32,000 nucleotides of DNA from Xanthomonas campestris pv. campestris str. ATCC 33913 (GTDB lineage: Bacteria > Pseudomonadota > Gammaproteobacteria > Xanthomonadales > Xanthomonadaceae): contig NC_003902.1 in NCBI RefSeq assembly GCF_000007145.1, positions 4,226,497 through 4,258,496 of the forward strand. Direction: 5' to 3'. A program made the position numbers and the translations under genes. This document shows, piece by piece, positions 11,401-30,688 of this stretch. The notes under the pieces are model-generated. The model made no database searches. It was given only the letters and a program-made list of their open reading frames with translations, and was not told where the DNA came from. Every line of letters begins with the position of its first letter. Position 1 is the first letter of the stretch.

Positions 11401-11425
11401 CAGTGCGACCGTTGCGGTCGCACTG
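11401..11425 (+). terminator. probable intrinsic terminator hairpin
   Basis: CAGTGCGACC (11401..11410) pairs with GGTCGCACTG (11416..11425) as a perfect 10-bp stem with a 5-nt loop. It starts 9 nt after the yiiX-like stop. Confidence 0.55.
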
Positions 11426-11624
11426 ATGCGGCACGCTGGGCGTCACGGTTACTTGCACACCAGGCTGCACGTCGAACGCGGTGACGTCGGGCACCAGGGA
11501 CCCGCCAGCCGTCCCAACCCGTGCTTTCCCGGTATAGTCGCGCAACTCTCGGCACTTGATGGCATCTGCGATCAGTCCAACGGCGCAGCTGCCGGGAGAT
11601 CACGACGTCACAGGGATCCGTACG

Positions 11625-12638
11625 ATGTCCACGCCGATTGCACTGCGCTGCGCCCTGGTCCTGGAGACCAACAACCTGCGCGGTGGCGACGCAGCACACA
11701 ACGCTGTGCTGGAGAGCCTGCAGCGCGCAGTGGCCGCACTGGCCGCGCAAACGGTTCCGCTCACCGCGCTGGCGCAGCTGATCGTGACCCACGACGGCCT
11801 GAGCGAAACCGCCTGCGCCGCGCTCAGCGGCATCGCCGGGCGGCCGGTGACCTTTGTCCGCATTGCGCACACCACCGGCTATTACGAGGCGAAGAACAGT
11901 GGCTTTGCCGCCACCGATCCGGCGCTGTGCGACTACGTGATCTTTGCCGATGCCGACTGCCTGCCGGCGGCGGACTGGTTGGCCGAACTGTTGCTGCCCT
12001 TCAGCACACAGCCGCAGCTGGCAGCGGTTGCCGGGCGTACCAGCTACGCCGCCACGCTGGTGGGCACCGCACTGACCACGCTGGATTTCATGTATTTCCC
12101 CAGCCCTTTGCAGCCGCAGGCCACGCGCAACTTCTATGCGAACAACGTGGTGTTCCGGCGCGAGATCTTCGCCGCGCATGCCTACCAGCCATTGGATGGC
12201 GTGTACCGCGCGCACTGCCAGGTGCTGGGGCTGCATCTGCAGGCCTGCGGCATCGCGGTGCACTACGCACCCCGTGCGCACACGGTGCACAAGCTGCCCG
12301 ACACCCGTGGCGAAGCACTGCAGCTGCGCTGGTGGCGCGGCCAGGACACGCTGGGCCTGACCCCGCACCTGGTCAAGGCGTATCTGCCGGCATCGCTGCA
12401 CTGGCTGGCGCGCAGCGGGCCGGTCGGGCCGCTGTGCGTGCTGGCATCGCGTCTGTGGTTCAGCGCGCAAGCCTTAAATATGCAGGACCTGCCGCCCGTA
12501 CGCGGGCTGCGCCGGGGCGCCGCGCTGGCACTGATCGCCGCGTTCTCCGCGGTGGACATGCTCGGCAGCCTGGCCGCCGGCTTGGGCTGGCGCCGCCGCC
12601 GCGCCGATGCGCAGGCGCTGTCTTACCACCACTCCTAG
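11625..12638 (+). CDS. family 2 (GT-A) glycosyltransferase
   Basis: ATG 11625 is preceded by AGGGA. Motifs include YYEAKNSG and a DxD-type IFADADCLP, plus a downstream hydrophobic C-terminal region. First gene of a four-gene coupled operon. Confidence 0.82.
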   Translation: MSTPIALRCALVLETNNLRGGDAAHNAVLESLQRAVAALAAQTVPLTALAQLIVTHDGLSETACAALSGIAGRPVTFVRIAHTTGYYEAKNSGFAATDPALCDYVIFADADCLPAADWLAELLLPFSTQPQLAAVAGRTSYAATLVGTALTTLDFMYFPSPLQPQATRNFYANNVVFRREIFAAHAYQPLDGVYRAHCQVLGLHLQACGIAVHYAPRAHTVHKLPDTRGEALQLRWWRGQDTLGLTPHLVKAYLPASLHWLARSGPVGPLCVLASRLWFSAQALNMQDLPPVRGLRRGAALALIAAFSAVDMLGSLAAGLGWRRRRADAQALSYHHS

Positions 12639-12640
12639 CG

Positions 12641-13384
12641 GTGAGCAGCGCGCTGCCAGCTGACCCCGGCACCGCTGGCGGCGTGCCGCTCCTGGCGCTG
12701 CAGCCACCGCCCCTGCGTGGCTGGGCGCGCACCCAGGCGTGGCTGGTCGATCGGATCAAGGCGGCCGCATTACGTCAGCTGCATGCCAGCGTCGCCGGCG
12801 AGTGCCTGCTGCTGCGGATGTATCTGGTTGGCGAAGAAGCCACCGAGCTGGCCTTGCAGCGCGAGGTGCCGGTGCAGCGGCCTGCGTGGCTGGTGCCGCT
12901 GATGGACCAGCATCTGCAGGAAGAGCAATGGCATGCACAGGCGTTCGCCGCCGCGCTGGCCGCACGCGGTGCCGCACGGCCCTCCGCGCAGCCCGATGCC
13001 CTGAGCCGGCGCAAGATTGCGCAGTGGCATCGGCTGGCAACACATCATGCGGGTGAGTTCCGGCAGGGCCTGCTGGTGCCTGCGTTTGCGATCGGGCTGT
13101 GTGCCGAACAGATGGCGTCGCGCGTCTTGCAGCGACACTGCGGCGTGTTGCCTGCCGGCCACGCACTGCAGCCGCTGCTCACGCGCGTGCTCGGCGATGA
13201 GCAACGCCACGTGCAACAGTGCCAGAGGATCCTGCAGCGGCTGGTACCTGCAGATGAGCAGGCAGCGCTGCAGGCACTGCTGGCGAAGGTGCGGCGGATC
13301 GACCGTGCATTCGGCATCAGTGGTGCGTTCGGCATGTATGCCGCCGGTGCGGTGCTGCGTGTACGGGCTTACCTGTGGCGGTGA
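12641..13384 (+). CDS. ferritin-like di-iron carboxylate protein (putative oxygenase)
   Basis: This is the 3' third of the artefactual 652-aa ORF 11426..13384. GTG 12641 lies 2 nt after the GT2 stop. It has a duplicated E...ExxH ligand pattern: GEEATE...LQEEQWH and CAEQMA...GDEQRH. The start codon is uncertain. Confidence 0.68.
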   Translation: MSSALPADPGTAGGVPLLALQPPPLRGWARTQAWLVDRIKAAALRQLHASVAGECLLLRMYLVGEEATELALQREVPVQRPAWLVPLMDQHLQEEQWHAQAFAAALAARGAARPSAQPDALSRRKIAQWHRLATHHAGEFRQGLLVPAFAIGLCAEQMASRVLQRHCGVLPAGHALQPLLTRVLGDEQRHVQQCQRILQRLVPADEQAALQALLAKVRRIDRAFGISGAFGMYAAGAVLRVRAYLWR

Positions 13385-14529
13385 AGCGCCCGCGCCTGCT
13401 GTACCTGGCCACCGCCGACGCACGCGGCCACCTGATGCGCGCACAGCTGCTGACGCATGCGTTGCAGGCGCAGGGCGCCGCGGTCGAGGTCATCACCACC
13501 TCGGCAGCCGGCGCACGGTTTCTCCACACCTTTGACATCCAGGCGAGCGTGTTGTCGCCGCATTACGCCGTGCAGTTCGATGCGCGCCAGAACATGCGCG
13601 CGGCCGCCACCGATGCCAACGTCGCCGCCTATTTGCTGCATCCGGCGCGGCTGCTGCGCGATGTCCTGCAACTGCAGCGACGCCTGCGTGAGGTCGACCT
13701 GGTCCTCAACGATTCCTTCCATCCGGCGCTGCTGGTGATGGGCATGCTGCCGGTCTGGCGGCACAAGATCGTGCACATCTATGGCGGCAGCTTGCGCGCC
13801 GCACTGCAGGGCAATTTCGAAGGCCGGCTGCCGCGCGTGCTGGCTGCGCTGTTCTCAGGCGCCATCGGCTGGCAGATCGACCGCGCCGCCGCGCAACTGG
13901 AGCACGACTTCGCGCAAAGCCAACCGCAGGCCAGCGGACGACGCGTGCGGCTGCCAACGCCGGTAGCGATTGCATCCCCATCTGCCACCCCCACGGCGCC
14001 AATGGCCGCGGTCTATCTCAACCCGCACTTCCGCGATCCCGCGCTCGCGCAGGCACTGGAGCTAGGACTGAGACGCGCGGGATTGGGCAGCCTGTGTGTC
14101 GGCGAAGGCTATGCGCAGCGCCCCGGCTGGCAGGCCGACCACCCACAGTGGATCGACCACGCCGCAACCAGCACGCTGCTGATCTCGGCGCCCGGCATGG
14201 CCGCGCTATCGATTGCGCTGGTGTACCGGCGGCCCATCCTGCTGATCGTCACCGGGCAGCCGGAGCAGCAACGCAATGCCGCGCATGCCGCAACCTGCGG
14301 CCTGGCGCATCAAATCGTTGCGTGGACGGGCGATGCAGACGCCTTTGCGCATGCCATCCACCACGCCTGCGACGCGTTGCGCGCAACCCCGCCCGCCGCC
14401 GGGCACGACGCGTCCACGCTGGACGCGCCACAGCGCCTGCAGCTGTGGGTCAGCCTGATCCTGGCCTTGGCACGCGGCGCACCTGCACAGGCATGGGTGG
14501 AACTCACAGCCACCGGACAGCACGCATGA
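13375..14529 (+). CDS. GT-B fold glycosyltransferase (MurG/GT1-like, Glyco_trans_1_3-like)
   Basis: The N-terminus RLLYLATADARGHLMRAQLL matches the G-H-x-x-R motif. The C-terminal ISAPGMAALSIALVYRRPILLIV..PEQQRNA matches the EQxxNA motif. GTG 13381 overlaps the upstream TGA (GTGA); GTG 13375 is the alternative start. Confidence 0.75.
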   Translation: MAVKRPRLLYLATADARGHLMRAQLLTHALQAQGAAVEVITTSAAGARFLHTFDIQASVLSPHYAVQFDARQNMRAAATDANVAAYLLHPARLLRDVLQLQRRLREVDLVLNDSFHPALLVMGMLPVWRHKIVHIYGGSLRAALQGNFEGRLPRVLAALFSGAIGWQIDRAAAQLEHDFAQSQPQASGRRVRLPTPVAIASPSATPTAPMAAVYLNPHFRDPALAQALELGLRRAGLGSLCVGEGYAQRPGWQADHPQWIDHAATSTLLISAPGMAALSIALVYRRPILLIVTGQPEQQRNAAHAATCGLAHQIVAWTGDADAFAHAIHHACDALRATPPAAGHDASTLDAPQRLQLWVSLILALARGAPAQAWVELTATGQHA

Positions 14530-15452
14530 GCGCCACGGTGCCGATAGCGCTTGCCCGCCTGCAGCCCTGGCGCAGCGGCATGGCACTGGCCGCCGACTGG
14601 GCCGTGATCGCGCTGTGCTTTGGCGCCGCCATGCTGTATCCACATCCGGCAGTGTATGCGTTGGCGATTGTGGTGATTGCCCGCACCCAGCTTGCGCTCG
14701 CGGTGATGATGCACGAGGGCGCGCACCGCCTGCTGGCGCATCGCCAGTCACGTAATGACGTGGTGGCGCAGGCGCTGGCCGCCGGCCCGCTGTTCCTGTC
14801 GCTGTTCGCCTACCGGCAAGGGCATTTGCAGCATCACCGCGCACCGATGTCGCCGGATGATCCAGTGGCCATCATGTTCGGCATTGCCGACTACCCTGTC
14901 TCGCGCCGCGAGCTGGCGCTGCGATTGCTCCGCGATGTCACCGGCATCGGCTACGTACTCGCCATCCGTGGTGCGCTACGCAGGCGCCGTACACAACCAG
15001 CCAGTGCGCACACCCGTACCGTGCCGCAGCGCGCGGGGCTGGTTGCCGGCACGATCCTGCTCAGCAACGGGCTGCTGTTCGGGGCTCTCGCCGCATTTGG
15101 CCACCCGCTGCTGTACCTGGGCCTATGGCTGCTGCCGGCGCTGACGCTGCTGCAGCTGTTCGCCCGCATCCGTGCCATCACCGAGCATGCCGGCTACGCC
15201 GCGTGCGAGGACCAGCGCCACAGCGCGCGCACCATCGTCGCGCGCAGCTGGCAAACCTTTTTCTGCGGCCCGCATGGCATCCACTACCACATCGAACACC
15301 ACCAGCATGTGCGCGTGCCGTTCTACCAACTGCCGGCCTTGCATCGCTGGATGCACGCGCAAAACCAGCTGCCCGCTGCAAATCTCTACCATGGCTACGG
15401 CGCCGTGCTCAGGGACGTGAGCCGGGGTGCGCGTAGTGACGATCAGCGTTGA
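14526..15452 (+). CDS. membrane fatty-acid desaturase/hydroxylase family protein
   Basis: ATG 14526 overlaps the upstream stop (ATGA). It has three His boxes (HEGAH, HLQHH, HIEHH) and several hydrophobic segments. The 5' part of ORF 14094..15452 is an out-of-frame overlap with the GT-B gene. Confidence 0.9.
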   Translation: MSATVPIALARLQPWRSGMALAADWAVIALCFGAAMLYPHPAVYALAIVVIARTQLALAVMMHEGAHRLLAHRQSRNDVVAQALAAGPLFLSLFAYRQGHLQHHRAPMSPDDPVAIMFGIADYPVSRRELALRLLRDVTGIGYVLAIRGALRRRRTQPASAHTRTVPQRAGLVAGTILLSNGLLFGALAAFGHPLLYLGLWLLPALTLLQLFARIRAITEHAGYAACEDQRHSARTIVARSWQTFFCGPHGIHYHIEHHQHVRVPFYQLPALHRWMHAQNQLPAANLYHGYGAVLRDVSRGARSDDQR

Positions 15453-15560
15453 CGCTGCAGCCTCCTCAACGCGCTGCGCTGGCGATCCCATCATGATCTG
15501 CACGCATGCAATCACCACTCCATGTCCGCACGACGGACCACACGCAACGTCAGGCTGGGA

Positions 15561-16541
15561 ATGTCTTTGAATCGAATCGGATTGATCGGGTTGGTCGTGC
15601 TGTTGCTGAGTGCGTGCGACAACACCGCCAAGGCGCCGCCCGCCGCAACAGCACCTGCAGTCACCAGTCAGGCGATTGCAGCGCCGGCACAGGCTACGCC
15701 GCTGGGCGGGCAACGTGGCGGCGGCAAGCCCTATGAATTGGTCGACAGCGAGGTCTGGGACGTGCCCGACCCGGCAACGGGTCGCACGTATCAGGTCTTC
15801 GTCGCCCTGCCACGTGGCTATGCAGACAATCCGCAACGCCGTTACCCGGTGCTGTACGCCACCGATGGCGACTATGCGTTCCCCCTGGTCAAGCAGATCG
15901 CGCGACGCTTGAATGGCGAAGGCCCGGCCGTCGAGGACTTCATCCTGGTCGGCCTGTCCTACGCCGTCGGCGACGAGCCCATGCCCAGCCGGCGGCGCGA
16001 TTACACGCCCACACCGGAAGATGGCCCAGACGCGGCGCCGGTTGCGACCCATGGTAAGAGCGCGGACTACATCCGCTACCTGCGCGATCGCGTGTTGCCG
16101 TTCGTTGCTAGGCGCTACCGAACCGACGAGCAGCGGCGTCTATATCTCGGGCATTCGTACGGTGGCCTGCTGGGCACGCAGATCCTGTTGAGCACACCGG
16201 ACATGTTTGCCGGCTACATCCTGGGCAGCCCATCGTATTGGTATGGCGAGCACGCGATGGTGGCGCAGGAAAAAACCTTTGCCGCCTCGCATACAGACCT
16301 GCCGGCGCTCGTCTATCTATACGTTGGCGAGTACGAGCAAGTGCGCTACCACCAGAATCACGACATGGTCGTCGACACACAGAACATGGCGCAGGCATTG
16401 CGCGCGCGGCACTATCCGTCGTTGCATCTCACGCTGGACGTTCTCAATGACGAGGACCACCTGACCATCGGGCCACGCGGCACCACCCACGGCTTGAAGG
16501 TCTTGCTCGGGATCAAGACGGCTGATCGGAGCGAGCGGTGA
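15561..16541 (+). CDS. alpha/beta-hydrolase esterase (putative-esterase/IroE-like family) lipoprotein
   Basis: ATG 15561 gives MSLNRIGLIGLVVLLLSAC-DN, a lipobox. Motifs include YPVLYATDGDYAF and the nucleophile elbow YLGHSYGGLLG. Confidence 0.85.
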   Translation: MSLNRIGLIGLVVLLLSACDNTAKAPPAATAPAVTSQAIAAPAQATPLGGQRGGGKPYELVDSEVWDVPDPATGRTYQVFVALPRGYADNPQRRYPVLYATDGDYAFPLVKQIARRLNGEGPAVEDFILVGLSYAVGDEPMPSRRRDYTPTPEDGPDAAPVATHGKSADYIRYLRDRVLPFVARRYRTDEQRRLYLGHSYGGLLGTQILLSTPDMFAGYILGSPSYWYGEHAMVAQEKTFAASHTDLPALVYLYVGEYEQVRYHQNHDMVVDTQNMAQALRARHYPSLHLTLDVLNDEDHLTIGPRGTTHGLKVLLGIKTADRSER

Positions 16542-17893
16542 CACATCGGGGACTCACTGCATACAAGGTCCTGCTTGCACTGTTGGCACTGCTGGCACTT
16601 GCACCGACTTCGCTGATGGCCGCAGCACCGACACTGCCAGGCGCGGGGTTCGAGGTCGAGGGCTATCAGCTGCAACTGCGCCCGGACCTCAGCACCACCG
16701 CGCTTTCCGGCGTGCAGCGCATTCGCCTACGCAGCACCTCCGACCACCTCACCCAGCTGACGTTCTCGCCTAATGCACTGCAGATCCTCTCGGCCGAACT
16801 AAATGGTCAGCCGATCGCAGTGACCAGCACCACCGATGGCATCACGTTTGCGTTGCCAAGCGCGCTTGCCAAAGGCGCCCGCGCGTCGCTCGCCTTCAAG
16901 ATCGTCGGCGTGCCGGCCCAGGGTGTTGTTCGCGCGGCCAGTGGCTTCTACACCAGCTACTTCGCGTGCGACTGGATGGTCTGCCTGCAGGACAGCCCCG
17001 GCCAAAAAGCGTCTTTCGCTTTGGATCTGTTCGTGCCTGCCGGCATCGATACGTTGAGCATCGGCGCAGGCTTGCCCCAGAAGGTGCTTCCGAACGGCCT
17101 GGTGCTGCACCGCTGGCGCGCTACCAGGCCGTATTCGGCCTATCTGTTCGGCTTTGCGGTTGGCACCTTCTCGCAGCAGTCATCCAAAACCACGGCCGGG
17201 ACGTTCGTCTATCTCGATGGCACAGGTCGAGGTGCGGACCTGGCAGACGCATTCCAGCAGACACCCTCCATTGCGGCATTTTTTGCGCAGGCGGCAGGCG
17301 TATCGCTCCCGGATGGTCGTTACACCCAGCTGCTTGTGCCCGGACAGGAGGCGCAGGAGGCGGCCACCTTCTCGCTCATTGGCGTGCAAGCACTGCAAGA
17401 CGAGCAGGAAGACCCCGCTTCGTCATGGATCATCGCGCATGAAATGGCGCATCAGTGGTGGGGAAACCTTGTCACCTGCGCATCGTGGCAAGACTTCTGG
17501 TTGAACGAGGGCATCACCACGTTCATGGTCGCCGCCTGGAAGCAACACGCCTTCGGCGAGGCGGCCTACCAGCAGGAGTTGAATGAAGCACGCCGCCGGC
17601 TTGCCATCGCCCGTGACGCCGGCTTCGACAAACCGCTGGCCTGGTCAGGTGAGTACCCCTCGTTACGTGTCCGCCGCGCCGTGCAGTACAGCAAAGGCGC
17701 GCTGTTCATGGCGCACTTGCGGCAGACGCTGGGTGAGCAGGCGTTTTGGGCGGGTATGCGCCGTTACACCCGCAAGAACGTGGGCAGCACCGTCGTCAGT
17801 CAGGACCTTCAGGGAGCAATGGAGCACGCCAGCGGGCGCGATCTTTCAGCACTGTTCGCGCAGTGGGTGTATGGCGACGAAGCGACTAACTGA
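16538..17893 (+). CDS. M1 family zinc metallopeptidase, exported, short form
   Basis: GTG 16538 overlaps the esterase stop (GTGA). It has a signal peptide, then HEMAHQWWGN followed by WLNEG (HExxH-x18-E). There is no canonical GAMEN; the sequence at that position is PGQEAQEAATF. Confidence 0.9.
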   Translation: MTHRGLTAYKVLLALLALLALAPTSLMAAAPTLPGAGFEVEGYQLQLRPDLSTTALSGVQRIRLRSTSDHLTQLTFSPNALQILSAELNGQPIAVTSTTDGITFALPSALAKGARASLAFKIVGVPAQGVVRAASGFYTSYFACDWMVCLQDSPGQKASFALDLFVPAGIDTLSIGAGLPQKVLPNGLVLHRWRATRPYSAYLFGFAVGTFSQQSSKTTAGTFVYLDGTGRGADLADAFQQTPSIAAFFAQAAGVSLPDGRYTQLLVPGQEAQEAATFSLIGVQALQDEQEDPASSWIIAHEMAHQWWGNLVTCASWQDFWLNEGITTFMVAAWKQHAFGEAAYQQELNEARRRLAIARDAGFDKPLAWSGEYPSLRVRRAVQYSKGALFMAHLRQTLGEQAFWAGMRRYTRKNVGSTVVSQDLQGAMEHASGRDLSALFAQWVYGDEATN

Positions 17894-28899: not shown

Positions 28900-30057
28900 T
28901 CAGCGCGTCATCGACGGACCGGCCTGTGAGACGGCTTGCTGCGACTGTTCTAATGCCTGCTGCTGCTCGCGCGCCTGGGCCTGAGTCTGGTTGAGTGCCT
29001 GCAGGCGATCGAACGACTGGATCTCAGGTGTCTGCACGGCTTCTATCGTTGGCATATGTGCCCGCTGGTGTGCCGGGTCATTGAGCGCGCCTTGTACAAC
29101 GAAGACCTTCTCGCCGCCAGCTAGCTGAGGCGTGGGGTTGTTGAGTGCAACATGGTCCACCCGCGACAGCCCTTCCTCTTTGGCCAACGCAAGCAAGCTG
29201 GCGGTCATGCGCTGGCTGGCCCCGTCCCACTCTTTGCCGTGTTGGGCGTCGAGCTGCATCACGCCACCTCTGATCTGCTGGTACAGCGCGTGGTCCGCGT
29301 GGCCTGGCTGTGAGGGCAACAACGTGGTCTTCGGTGACACCGAGGGTGATTCAGGACCAAGTCCACCCTGCTTCACATCAGAAGTACTGATGTCGCCAAC
29401 GCCTCCAGGTTCCGGTCGACCCTGTTTGCGTTGCAGCGGTGCAATATATTTATCGTAGTAATCTCCGTAATATTGTTCATATGTTTTACTTGGACCAACC
29501 GAAGGTTTTTCCGTCTTGAAGACCTGGGCAATCTGGTTCAATGCAGCATCGCGCGTGATGCGACCTGCCATTTGCTGATCTGCAATTGCCTGGTACTGCT
29601 GTGGCCTTGTGCCGCTTCCAGAGATACCGATATCCGGTCCGTTATTATTTATAATCTCACGCCGAATTAGTGCGTTGCTAAGCGTTGCTGCAGCTTCGCC
29701 ACGGAGCATGCTCGTGACGTACCCATTCTTGGAGGACTGATCGGATTGCTCAGAAAATCGATGATGTCCAATTTCATGCGATAGCGACCGAGCGATGCGC
29801 GCACCGTTTCCAACTGCATTTTCGTCAATAACTACTTGCGTGCGAGGAACGAGATAGGTGCCGGCACCGGCAGTCCCCCATACCACCCCAATGTTGTCCC
29901 GATTCAGCTGCGCGAGGCCTGCCTGAAGTGTTGGAGACCTCTGCAAGAAAGGCGTGACCGAAGGATCCGATAGCGGAGAGGACGGCTTCACTGCAGCGGC
30001 TCCTGACACCGATTGCTGCGGCTGCGGATACTTCGACTCGTCGATATTTTCCATCAT
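28900..30057 (-). CDS. putative X-T4SS effector (X-Tfe): N-terminal HExxH gluzincin-like domain plus C-terminal XVIPCD
   Basis: GGAG lies 3 nt before ATG 30057 and 6 nt before ATG 30054. HEIGH is encoded at 29764..29778, with GEAAA 23 residues after the second His. The C-terminal ~135 aa (about 28903..29316) carry GHADHALYQQIRGG, SLLALAKEEGLSRVDHVAL, VFVVQGALNDPAH and the Gln-rich tail QTQAQAREQQQALEQSQQ. Confidence 0.82.
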   Translation of the reverse strand: MMENIDESKYPQPQQSVSGAAAVKPSSPLSDPSVTPFLQRSPTLQAGLAQLNRDNIGVVWGTAGAGTYLVPRTQVVIDENAVGNGARIARSLSHEIGHHRFSEQSDQSSKNGYVTSMLRGEAAATLSNALIRREIINNNGPDIGISGSGTRPQQYQAIADQQMAGRITRDAALNQIAQVFKTEKPSVGPSKTYEQYYGDYYDKYIAPLQRKQGRPEPGGVGDISTSDVKQGGLGPESPSVSPKTTLLPSQPGHADHALYQQIRGGVMQLDAQHGKEWDGASQRMTASLLALAKEEGLSRVDHVALNNPTPQLAGGEKVFVVQGALNDPAHQRAHMPTIEAVQTPEIQSFDRLQALNQTQAQAREQQQALEQSQQAVSQAGPSMTR

Positions 30058-30088
30058 GCACTCCGTTGCGGGAACCCAACTCAGCAAC

Positions 30089-30688
30089 TTATTTCTTGCT
30101 GATTGTGATGTAGCTTAGACCAGACTGATCTTGGTTCAATCCAAAGATGACAGTTGCCGTTTCTCTCTGCATCGACCAGTAAGCGCTCGAGCCGGCCGCG
30201 TCTGGGCGCGGTGGGTAGAGGGAAGCATCTGGCGAGGGCATACCCTCGAACTTCGGCCCAGGCGGCGAAAAGTCAAGCACAAGAGTCGCATGCGAAGGGG
30301 CATGCTGATTACTGCGAAGCTCAATGCGCTTCAAGGCTGCACCAGCCAGCACACCACTTACACCGGCCCGTATCACCATCACATCTTGCGATTCACCTGG
30401 GCCCAGTTGCGTTTGAAGCTGAGCGTTAAGTGCTGCGATATCGTGGAAGTCAGTTGCGATCAAACGATCCACATCTTGCTTGAGGCGTTCCGTCACGTCT
30501 TTGCTCCTGGTTTCAATGGAGGACTTTGCAGCCGCTACGGCTGGCTGATCGCGTGGAGTGCTGAGGGCACATCCCGCATGAAAAGTGCATAGTGTCAGCA
30601 GCGCAACTGGTAACAACGCTGCCCAAGGGAGGGCATTACGTCCTTGGTTAACTTGCCGGCCATGGGATTTCCCAAGGTGAAGGGCCAT
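30089..30688 (-). CDS. exported lipoprotein-like protein, candidate cognate immunity protein (X-Tfi)
   Basis: N-terminus with ALPWAALLPVALLTLCTFHAGC-AL, a signal peptide with an A-G-C lipobox but an atypical His at -3. It lies immediately upstream of the effector (31-nt gap, same strand). A candidate extended -10 (TGGTAAATT on the minus strand, + coordinates about 30720..30728) lies upstream. No family recognised. Confidence 0.68.
   Translation of the reverse strand: MALHLGKSHGRQVNQGRNALPWAALLPVALLTLCTFHAGCALSTPRDQPAVAAAKSSIETRSKDVTERLKQDVDRLIATDFHDIAALNAQLQTQLGPGESQDVMVIRAGVSGVLAGAALKRIELRSNQHAPSHATLVLDFSPPGPKFEGMPSPDASLYPPRPDAAGSSAYWSMQRETATVIFGLNQDQSGLSYITISKK

Follow-up and report, generated by a model that had tools for sequence, protein, structure and literature searches.

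Within the 32,000-nucleotide window of the Xanthomonas campestris pv. campestris (Xcc) chromosome analysed here, four same-strand genes (G1–G4; 11625–15452, forward strand) follow one another almost without interruption, raising the question of whether they form a single biosynthetic system and, if so, what that system makes. The tight packing noted in the preliminary description was borne out by a check of the junctions and by public gene calls, which feature the identical four genes in X. campestris genomes. G1 extends from an ATG at 11625 to a TAG at 12636–12638, and G2 starts at a GTG at 12641, after a gap of 2 nt. The G2 stop (13382–13384) lies within the GTGA at 13381–13384 that provides the G3 start, and the G3 stop and the G4 start share an ATGA at 14526–14529; both junctions are 4-nt overlaps. 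G4 ends at 15452. A second G3 start, a GTG at 13375, is found in public annotations and gives a protein of 384 rather than 382 residues. As judged from the gene layout, G1–G4 are one predicted unit of transcription and translation. All four genes are under purifying selection (dN/dS 0.19–0.26, X. campestris against X. bonasiae). In some X. campestris strains, G2 or G3 is truncated, and the system is therefore dispensable.

The neighbourhood of the genes was compared at 80 genome loci collected with the di-iron protein G2, which serve as the denominator for the locus counts. Genes encoding a GT2 transferase, the di-iron protein and a GT-B transferase are colinear at all 80 loci. These cover two proteobacterial classes, and the hosts include Xanthomonas, Pseudomonas, Aquipseudomonas, Burkholderia, Paraburkholderia, Variovorax, Janthinobacterium, Bordetella, Achromobacter, Comamonas and Amphritea. 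The desaturase-like gene (G4) comes next after these three at 35 of the 80 loci. Because the three genes are found together at 80/80 loci and the desaturase-like gene at 35/80 (plus a Leptospira-like contig), the unit is best described as a three-gene core with accessories. In the core, G1 is a GT2 glycosyltransferase, G2 a novel di-iron-carboxylate protein and G3 a GT-B transferase of the GT1-like type. The accessories are G4, which is present in Xcc, and two proteins that are not. One is a secreted protein of ~335 residues featuring a signal peptide and two invariant cysteines, the gene of which is inserted between G1 and G2 at 71/80 loci and is missing in Xcc, Amphritea and Comamonas. The other is a PAP2 lipid phosphatase weakly resembling undecaprenyl-diphosphate phosphatase, encoded inside the operon at 22/80 loci and carried by Burkholderia and the P. 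chlororaphis group. The expectation that co-conservation would be found in a neighbourhood comparison thus held, at the 80 loci and on distant contigs, and reached far outside the Xanthomonadales; the conserved unit, however, is the GT2, di-iron and GT-B trio rather than the four genes initially proposed, G4 being an accessory.

Module genes are seen in at least three further orders. A Leptospira-like contig (43% GC), which also encodes a DUF1564 protein, has the order DES-UNK-FER-GTB-GT2. Soil metagenome contigs of 71–75% GC have the order FER-GTB-GT2, all three genes being detected on 14 of them. In Aquabacterium, a divergent DES-PAP2-UDPGDH unit adjoins GT2-UNK-FER-GTB. The three-gene core stands by itself in Amphritea, flanked by housekeeping genes. 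UDP-glucose 6-dehydrogenase is a conserved neighbour at 26 Variovorax loci and in Aquabacterium, and Oxalobacteraceae loci carry an extra GT28/GT1-type transferase; no further gene families are kept across genera around the module. Start and stop codon overlaps are frequent in high-GC genomes, and unrelated neighbours packed by genome compaction, sharing no pathway, might look like G1–G4. This explanation is effectively refuted by the colinearity at 80/80 loci in two classes, by the re-assortment of the same gene families on distant contigs and by the unrelated genomic contexts of the block, a difference seen even when X. campestris is set against X. bonasiae. Pairwise identities of the G1–G4 proteins, moreover, co-vary (r 0.91–0.97), a correlated divergence that also argues against compaction, to which we accord almost no probability. 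The arrangement is not due to chance, and G1–G4 are the form taken in Xcc by a biosynthetic module that is widespread and self-contained.

The four product superfamilies had been named correctly from the sequence, as indicated by a GT2 Pfam match, di-iron ligands, a structure prediction for the GT-B protein and an FA_desaturase match; all of the motifs reported for them (DxD, duplicated E...ExxH, GHxxR, EQxxNA and three His boxes) were confirmed and are retained by orthologues. G1 (11625–12638, 337 residues) is a GT-A glycosyltransferase matching PF00535 at 39.3 bits (cut-off 23.3). Its DAD motif (D109/D111) is invariant among orthologues, which are 57–78% identical at the 80 loci and 41% identical on the Leptospira-like contig, and hydropathy reveals a C-terminal hydrophobic segment at 298–321. 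The GT21 Pfam family scores merely 11.7 bits, and G1 is a divergent GT2 enzyme. Its top NCBIfam match is MftF, a small-molecule glycosyltransferase, and no GtrB, DPMS or ArnC-type structure was found in the PDB by the G1 profile.

G2 (12641–13384, 247 residues) is a soluble, basic (pI 10.5) seven-helix di-iron-carboxylate protein. The ligands E65, E95xxH98, E156 and E187xxH190 are invariant down to 25% identity, and a hydrophobic C-terminal helix is conserved. AlphaFold2 (AF2) yielded a model with a pLDDT of 90.6, for which no PDB fold was retrieved at E<0.01; the best matches were TenA, UndA, ADO and Dps (E>0.01, TM ~0.5). The Pfam families AurF, COQ7 and Ferritin match weakly, each below its gathering cut-off. 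G2 shares the E / ExxH / E / ExxH arrangement on helical-bundle helices with AurF/CmlI N-oxygenases, Coq7, MiaE, acyl-ACP desaturase, ADO and UndA-type heme-oxygenase-like di-iron enzymes, and its weak Pfam and Foldseek matches fall among such ferritin-like and UndA-type oxygenases. It differs from the AurF, Coq7, MiaE, ADO and UndA groups in its sub-cut-off Pfam scores, its TM of ~0.5 and its tiny family. Only 92 clusters among 1.84 billion representatives belong to this family, which occurs only beside GT2 and GT-B genes. G2 is a member of a very small, isolated family in the ferritin-like superfamily.

No Pfam family matches G3 (13381–14529, 382 residues, or 384 from the alternative start). 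Its AF2 model (pLDDT 89.9) predicts a GT-B fold and gave 247 Foldseek matches in the PDB at E<1e-3. The top matches (SpnP, OleI/OleD, UrdGT2, CalG and YjiC; E ~6e-11) are all GT1 natural-product glycosyltransferases, and the motifs G16-H17-x-x-R20 and E295-Q296-x-x-N299-A300 are kept in orthologues. G4 (14526–15452, 308 residues) is an integral-membrane (2+2 TM) di-iron desaturase or hydroxylase of the FA_desaturase family (PF00487, E 1e-39). Its His boxes are HEGAH(63), HLQHH(100) and HIEHH(255), and 12 histidines, including the canonical eight, are invariant among 37 orthologues; the Leptospira-like orthologue is 52% identical. The best curated family is GntB (NF041365), which scores 99.5 bits for G4 (equivalog cut-off 380) and 115 bits for the Leptospira-like protein, CrtW and DesB scoring well below it for both. 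G4 and GntB align over their full length (9–286 vs 16–288 of 308) and are alike in size and membrane di-iron architecture, but the score is far from the cut-off and no other gnt gene is linked to G4. GntB is the transmembrane L-arginine gamma-hydroxylase of guanitoxin biosynthesis and acts on free L-arginine (PMC10367076), so a non-lipid substrate is possible for G4.

The statement that no characterised pathway matches this gene content withstood NCBIfam, PDB sequence and literature searches. Module products score far under NCBIfam equivalog cut-offs, PDB sequence searches with them were empty, and neither curated families nor solved structures nor the literature offer a function for the module. 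It is a gene set matching no studied pathway, and is a good lead to a new pathway and to a new di-iron enzyme family.

We infer a doubly glycosylated, oxidised lipid or isoprenoid as the product. The favoured model, held tentatively and at somewhat less than an even chance, is a membrane-associated pathway whose lipophilic product carries two sugars and is hydroxylated or desaturated, a new kind of oxidised di-glycosyl lipid. The acceptor would be lipophilic and common to most bacteria, for instance an acyl chain, diacylglycerol or some other membrane lipid, and the enzymes would act on it from the cytoplasmic side of the inner membrane. G2 would hydroxylate this acceptor with O2, or oxidise it in some other way. 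The first sugar would be attached by G3, whose relatives glycosylate hydrophobic aglycones, and the second, which may be glucuronate-derived in Comamonadaceae, by G1. G4 would desaturate or hydroxylate the hydrocarbon portion. PAP2, in the other taxa that have it, could supply or remodel the dephosphorylated lipid, and the secreted protein could handle the product in the periplasm. The order of these steps is a guess.

Several features of the loci point to lipids or membranes: the four TM segments and FA_desaturase family membership of G4, the PAP2 genes in 22 operons, the hydrophobic C-terminus of G1, the basic character of G1, G2 and G3 (pI 8.9–10.5), the hydrophobic helix of G2, the activity of the structural neighbours of G3 on hydrophobic aglycones, and the linked GT28/GT1-type transferase and UDP-glucose 6-dehydrogenase. 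Others point away from a lipid. None of the three core proteins is an integral-membrane lipid enzyme; GntB, the closest curated match of G4, hydroxylates a free amino acid (PMC10367076); the acceptors of GT1-like enzymes include soluble small molecules as well; and the substrate of G2 could be a sugar or nucleotide-sugar rather than the aglycone. The system is dispensable, and no conserved Pho box, Fur box or other regulatory clue was found upstream of the module.

The product could alternatively be a water-soluble glycosylated small molecule, for example an oxidised glycoside derived from an amino acid, a polyol or an amine, with a role as osmolyte, signal or antibiotic. In that case, G4 would be a GntB-like membrane hydroxylase of a soluble substrate and G2 an AurF/Coq7-type oxygenase of the aglycone. 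The GntB matches of G4 and its Leptospira-like orthologue, the weak AurF and COQ7 matches of G2, the natural-product GT1 neighbours of G3 and the MftF match of G1 are all consistent with such a product. We nevertheless consider it unlikely: the GntB score is about one quarter of the cut-off, the genes conserved around the module include no exporter, no resistance gene and no scaffold-forming enzyme such as an NRPS, PKS or aminotransferase, 22 operons contain a PAP2 lipid phosphatase, the G1 C-terminus is membrane-anchoring and the soluble components are all strongly basic. Modification of a cell-envelope glycoconjugate (LPS core, lipid A, periplasmic glucan or another glycan) is likewise rather improbable. 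G1 would make a polyprenyl-phosphate-linked sugar for G3 and G2 to elaborate, transfer would be completed in the periplasm by the secreted protein, and the role of PAP2 would be to recycle the carrier or to remove phosphate from lipid A. All identified hosts, including that of the Leptospira-like contig, are diderm (the high-GC soil contigs carry no taxonomic assignment), 71 of the 80 operons encode the signal-peptide protein with its two cysteines, the PAP2 protein has its undecaprenyl-diphosphate phosphatase likeness, G1 resembles Und-P glycosyltransferases in pairing a GT-A domain with a membrane segment at the C-terminus, and Comamonadaceae have the UDP-glucose dehydrogenase neighbour. In contrast, module loci have no linked GT-C transferase, flippase or polymerase, the G1 profile retrieves no GtrB, DPMS or ArnC-type structure and G1 has just 39 bits on PF00535, the secreted protein is wholly missing from Xcc, Amphritea and Comamonas, and no obvious role is left for the membrane desaturase-like enzyme.

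The favoured lipid model shares its logic (an oxygenase, two sequential sugars and optional tailoring) with fungal sophorolipid and cellobiose-lipid clusters, in which an O2-dependent hydroxylase creates the acceptor hydroxyl on a fatty chain before two UDP-glycosyltransferases act. These eukaryotic clusters feature cytochrome P450 hydroxylases, two GT1 enzymes, an acetyltransferase and an exporter; the module instead has a novel ferritin-like di-iron protein as its predicted oxygenase, a GT2 enzyme as one of its transferases, and no linked exporter. Glycosyl-diacylglycerol synthesis (PlcP-Agt, and the processive GT21 enzyme Pgt) is encoded by small operons, in which a lipid-dephosphorylating enzyme feeds one or two glycosyltransferases, and glucuronate-containing lipids are among the products. 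The likeness lies in the small, self-contained operon logic. Those systems use GT4 and GT21 transferases and no di-iron oxygenases, whereas the module has a divergent GT2 and a GT1-like transferase, di-iron oxygenases and no conserved Pho box. G4 resembles carotenoid CrtW in its FA_desaturase-type membrane di-iron fold and G3 resembles CrtX in its GT1 GT-B fold. G4 scores 27 bits on the CrtW family (cut-off 350); no crtE/B/I/Y genes occur in the window or at any related locus, and, unlike CrtW and CrtX, the module is hosted by bacteria including some without linked carotenoid genes.

Upstream of G1, a perfect hairpin (11-bp stem, 3-nt loop) at 11401–11425 on the forward strand begins 8 nt past the stop of a C92-peptidase gene. 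Its local fold has an energy of -27.1 kcal/mol (z = -3.1), and the sequence is unique within the window. It has no U-tract, and a terminator scan made no call there. The hairpin, which had been taken to insulate the operon, does exist and marks the upstream boundary, but it is probably the 3' structure of the C92-peptidase gene rather than a dedicated insulator. No Rfam family matches the leader, and no complete promoter emerged when it was scanned for the sigma-70 consensus. The sole perfectly kept stretch of the otherwise diverged leader in X. campestris and X. bonasiae is the block (TT)CCCGGTATAGTCG at 11528–11543 (forward strand), which contains TATAGT at 11533–11538 and may serve the operon as a -10 promoter element or as an operator.

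The four genes at 11625-15452 form a predicted operon of the oxygenase-plus-glycosyltransferase biosynthetic kind, the di-iron protein family of which has no characterised relative. The six-frame ORF list, the translations and inspection of the junctions place all four genes on the + strand. G1, encoding a GT2 glycosyltransferase, runs from ATG 11625 to TAG 12638; G2, encoding a predicted di-iron protein, from GTG 12641 to TGA 13384; G3, encoding a predicted GT-B glycosyltransferase, from GTG 13381 (alternative start, GTG 13375) to TGA 14529; and G4, encoding a membrane desaturase-like enzyme, from ATG 14526 to TGA 15452. The junctions listed in the preliminary description, a 2-nt gap followed by GTGA and ATGA overlaps, are exact. 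Public gene calls, which are independent, yield the same four genes, and exact copies of all four predicted proteins are found in many X. campestris assemblies. Such tight packing, with a 2-nt gap and 4-nt overlaps, suggests that the four genes are co-transcribed.

The enzyme classes initially proposed for the four products are borne out by Pfam, motifs and structure models. In G2, the ligand set E65, E95xxH98, E156 and E187xxH190 is invariant in 28 close homologues and in 14 distant members, down to 25% identity. The AlphaFold2 (AF2) model of G2 (pLDDT 90.6) is a seven-helix bundle featuring the ligands on helices 2, 3, 5 and 6. The duplicated E...ExxH set on a helical bundle predicts that G2 is a ferritin-like di-iron-carboxylate protein. 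Scores obtained for G2 are below the Pfam gathering cut-offs (in parentheses) for AurF (19.9 bits; 29.6), COQ7 (18.1; 23.5) and Ferritin (16.7; 24.5). A Foldseek search of the PDB with the G2 model gave no match at E<0.01; the nearest folds, all weak (TM ~0.5), are those of TenA, UndA, aldehyde-deformylating oxygenase (ADO) and Dps. The G2 profile retrieved only 92 clusters among 1.84 billion representatives. Remote clusters bear merely generic, sub-threshold ferritin-like signatures, and domain fusions among remote relatives were discarded as spurious low-complexity matches. All homologues are annotated as either "hypothetical" or "ferritin-like", all distant members are metagenome proteins, and a tblastn search of plasmids with G2 found no copy. 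Its isolation, its invariant ligands and the lack of any precedent in structure or function make the G2 family a candidate for new oxygenase chemistry.

G1 matches the Pfam family PF00535 (Glycos_transf_2) over residues 24-182, scoring 39.3 bits against a gathering cut-off of 23.3, as do its orthologues match the same family. The DxD motif, D109-A-D111, is invariant in 16 orthologues. G3 is predicted to be a GT1-like glycosyltransferase with a GT-B fold. The AlphaFold2 model, obtained from an input of database homologues, has a pLDDT of 89.9 and alternating beta/alpha elements in a clear GT-B fold, and the motifs G-H-x-x-R and E-Q-x-x-N-A are conserved. Foldseek matched the G3 model to 247 PDB entries at E<1e-3 (best E, 6e-11). 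The best 50 of the 247 matches are all GT1 enzymes acting on natural products or xenobiotics, and the fold neighbours include SpnP, OleI/OleD, UrdGT2, CalG and YjiC. At the sequence level, no Pfam family matched G3 at E<0.1, and no NCBIfam model scored above its cut-off (TIGR00661, 18.8 bits vs 195.9).

G4 is a solid member of the membrane FA_desaturase/hydroxylase family (PF00487; 137 bits vs a cut-off of 29.7, E 1e-39). Twelve histidines are invariant in 37 orthologues, among them the canonical eight of the HxxxH, HxxHH and HxxHH boxes (H63, H67, H100, H103, H104, H255, H258 and H259). The hydropathy profile features two pairs of hydrophobic spans, as in proteins with four transmembrane helices. 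The best curated relative of G4 is GntB (NCBIfam NF041365), the model of which aligns full-length with this FA-desaturase-type protein. GntB is called a transmembrane enzyme in an ACS Catalysis paper from the laboratory that discovered it (PMC10367076). A review from 2025 describes GntB as an alpha-ketoglutarate-dependent enzyme (PMC12371840), a statement that looks inaccurate.

Neither curated families (NCBIfam equivalogs, Pfam) nor PDB sequences or fold neighbours assign the operon to a pathway, and a full-text literature search retrieved no paper describing the gene cluster. Profile-to-PDB sequence searches with G1-G4 and with a secreted protein encoded in related loci gave nothing significant. 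The view that no characterised cluster matches is upheld, as carotenoid, xanthan and LPS-core assignments fail on both family scores and gene content. For instance, G4 scores 27 bits with CrtW (cut-off 350), ruling out a crtW/crtX-type cluster, and the related loci show no conserved carotenoid genes. Guanitoxin synthesis was similarly rejected (GntB, 99.5 bits vs 380), and gnt-like neighbours are missing. None of the NCBIfam equivalogs compared with G1 (MftF, EpsD, PgaC, AglG, HpsE/N) exceeded its cut-off; the best, MftF, reached 46 bits vs 280, and mycofactocin was rejected on this score and on gene content.

The G2 neighbourhoods of P. chlororaphis, Janthinobacterium and Variovorax contain the same gene set as X. 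campestris, and the P. chlororaphis G1, G3 and G4 orthologues are 56-59% identical to the X. campestris proteins over their full length. A scan of one genome per species with the di-iron protein yielded 80 loci, which were then searched by tblastn with the X. campestris proteins. All 80 carry G1, G2 and G3 in colinear order, and 35 carry G4. The neighbourhood comparison proposed in the preliminary description thus revealed co-conservation well beyond Xanthomonadales, but the conserved entity is a three-gene core with accessories rather than a four-gene unit. In Amphritea, the core stands alone between ppiD and an ABC transporter gene. In 71/80 loci, G1 and G2 are separated by a gene for a protein of ~335 residues. 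The protein has a signal peptide and two invariant cysteines and resembles no known family; its gene was not found in the X. campestris window. A PAP2 phosphatase gene lies between G3 and G4 in 22/80 loci (Burkholderia, Paraburkholderia, Trinickia and the P. chlororaphis group), and five of the 80 carry an additional GT28/GT1-type transferase gene. G4 is located either directly downstream of G3 or after the PAP2 gene, except in the Aquabacterium locus L078. No other gene family is conserved around the module across genera. A linkage to fatty-acyl reductase and wax-ester synthase genes, seen in Janthinobacterium fluminis only, was dropped as evidence.

The operon is flanked in X. campestris by genes encoding peptidases, an esterase, a MarR protein and others. 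Since these flanking genes are not found beside the block in any other genome, X. bonasiae included, the block moves as one piece. The four proteins diverge in step, their pairwise identities being highly correlated (r 0.91-0.97), and the dN/dS ratio relative to X. bonasiae is 0.19-0.26 for each gene. Some X. campestris strains carry truncated alleles, encoding either a 102-residue G2 (e.g., AEL08757) or a G3 of 148, 175 or 227 residues. Such alleles indicate that the genes are becoming pseudogenes and can be dispensed with in part of the species, and the system is therefore not essential.

Other gene orders occur in distant relatives. One distant G2 member (28% identity) is encoded on a 43%-GC contig (L094, 6907-11873). 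The same contig carries a gene for a DUF1564 protein, a family we take to be Leptospira-specific. The order on this contig is desaturase-like, secreted protein, di-iron, GT-B and GT2. The desaturase-like protein is 52% identical to X. campestris G4, whereas the GT2, di-iron and GT-B proteins (compared with X. campestris) and the secreted protein (compared with P. chlororaphis) are only 22-41% identical; G4 is therefore either under much tighter constraint than its partners or has been exchanged more recently. A second distant G2 subfamily comes from soil metagenomes, on contigs mostly of 71-75% GC. GT-B adjoins the di-iron gene in every soil contig that extends beyond it, and the 14 contigs in which all three genes were detected have the order di-iron, GT-B, GT2; Pfam searches of the ORFs flanking these trios were uninformative. 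In Aquabacterium L078, genes for the desaturase-like protein, PAP2 and a UDP-glucose dehydrogenase form a divergent unit beside the GT2-secreted protein-di-iron-GT-B genes. In all 26 Variovorax loci (within L023-L072), the module likewise has a UDP-glucose 6-dehydrogenase gene as its conserved divergent neighbour; this hints at a glucuronate-derived sugar donor in these two genera. That the same families recur in several arrangements argues strongly for a shared function and makes G4 a genuine, though optional, component. The genes behave as a module, colinear in 80/80 loci and rearranged in the Leptospira-like contig, the soil contigs and Aquabacterium; adjacency of the four genes by chance is effectively excluded.

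We tentatively favour, at slightly under an even chance, a membrane-associated pathway leading to an oxidised, di-glycosylated lipophilic product. G2 would oxygenate a common lipophilic acceptor, two sugars would be added by G3 (GT1-like) and G1 (GT2), and G4 would desaturate or hydroxylate the hydrocarbon part; we infer both the substrate and the order of the steps. The membrane pathway is preferred on circumstantial grounds: G4 is an integral membrane enzyme of the FA_desaturase family, lipid phosphatases of the PAP2 type are found inside 22 operons, G1 has a hydrophobic C-terminus, G1-G3 have a pI of 8.9-10.5, G2 has a conserved hydrophobic C-terminal helix, and G3 has as its fold neighbours GT1 enzymes with hydrophobic aglycones as acceptors. 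The resemblance of G4 to GntB, a transmembrane hydroxylase of free L-arginine (PMC10367076), would suit a module making a soluble glycoside, which we consider unlikely. Modification of the envelope, of the LPS type and via a lipid-linked sugar, would account for the secreted protein and PAP2; it seems to us just as improbable, as no GT-C enzyme or flippase is linked to the module and the secreted protein is lacking in X. campestris. Of the original reading of an oxidised, doubly glycosylated lipid, the enzyme classes stand, and the product is a candidate with circumstantial support.

A broader reading, to which we give a little less than an even chance, is that the trio and the optional desaturase-like, PAP2 and secreted proteins build a new class of oxidised glycolipids or glycosides, which Proteobacteria would have in common with Leptospira-like spirochaetes and with uncultured soil bacteria of high GC. 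G2 would then found a new functional family of di-iron oxygenases acting only in concert with glycosyltransferases, for example making the glycosylation site or oxidising the sugar itself. If so, a compact, portable pathway for an envelope lipid or glycoside would be present in many plant-associated, soil and clinical Gram-negatives, including X. campestris, the Burkholderia cepacia complex, the P. chlororaphis/protegens group, Variovorax, Janthinobacterium, Bordetella/Achromobacter and Leptospira-like organisms. Envelope lipids and glycosides often affect membrane robustness, antibiotic tolerance, host recognition and surface behaviour. With minimal versions of just three genes in Amphritea and in soil bacteria, the question lends itself to a direct test by heterologous expression, and the operon is an attractive, testable lead, short of a paradigm shift.

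The hairpin at 11401-11425, previously thought to insulate the operon, has a perfect 11-bp stem (local fold -27.1 kcal/mol, z = -3.1) and a sequence that occurs once in the window. Because it starts 8 nt past the stop codon of the C92-peptidase gene upstream and has no U-tract, we read it as the 3' structure of that gene rather than as an insulator. In the leader, the block CCCGGTATAGTCG (11528-11543), which contains TATAGT at 11533-11538, is the sole stretch perfectly conserved between X. campestris and X. bonasiae; the remainder has diverged and the genomic contexts differ. The block is a candidate -10 element or operator. Used as a -10, TATAGT would place the transcription start ~80 nt upstream of ATG 11625, an argument against TTG 11556 as the alternative start codon. 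When the regions upstream of G1 in 85 loci were scanned for Pho and Fur boxes, the matches were only weak and genus-specific, and an Rfam scan of the leader found no family. No stable RNA structure was found 3' of the G4 stop codon (z = +1.0). In the downstream stretch (15453-17893), a 108-nt gap is followed by an esterase gene (PF00756) encoding a lipoprotein-like N-terminus; the esterase gene shares 4 nt (GTGA, 16538-16541) with a gene for an M1-family peptidase. Transcription of the operon may continue into these two genes, neither of which accompanies the module in any other genome examined.

Elsewhere in the window, a 395-residue ORF on the - strand (28900-30087) has an XVIPCD domain at its C-terminus (PF20410, E 1e-32), a domain that marks the type IV secretion effectors of Xanthomonadales (X-Tfe). 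Immediately upstream, an adjacent ORF on the same strand (30089-30688; 199 residues, no Pfam match) may encode the cognate immunity protein. Both ORFs map to a low-GC stretch at 26-31 kb (GC 0.55-0.57, vs ~0.65 elsewhere).
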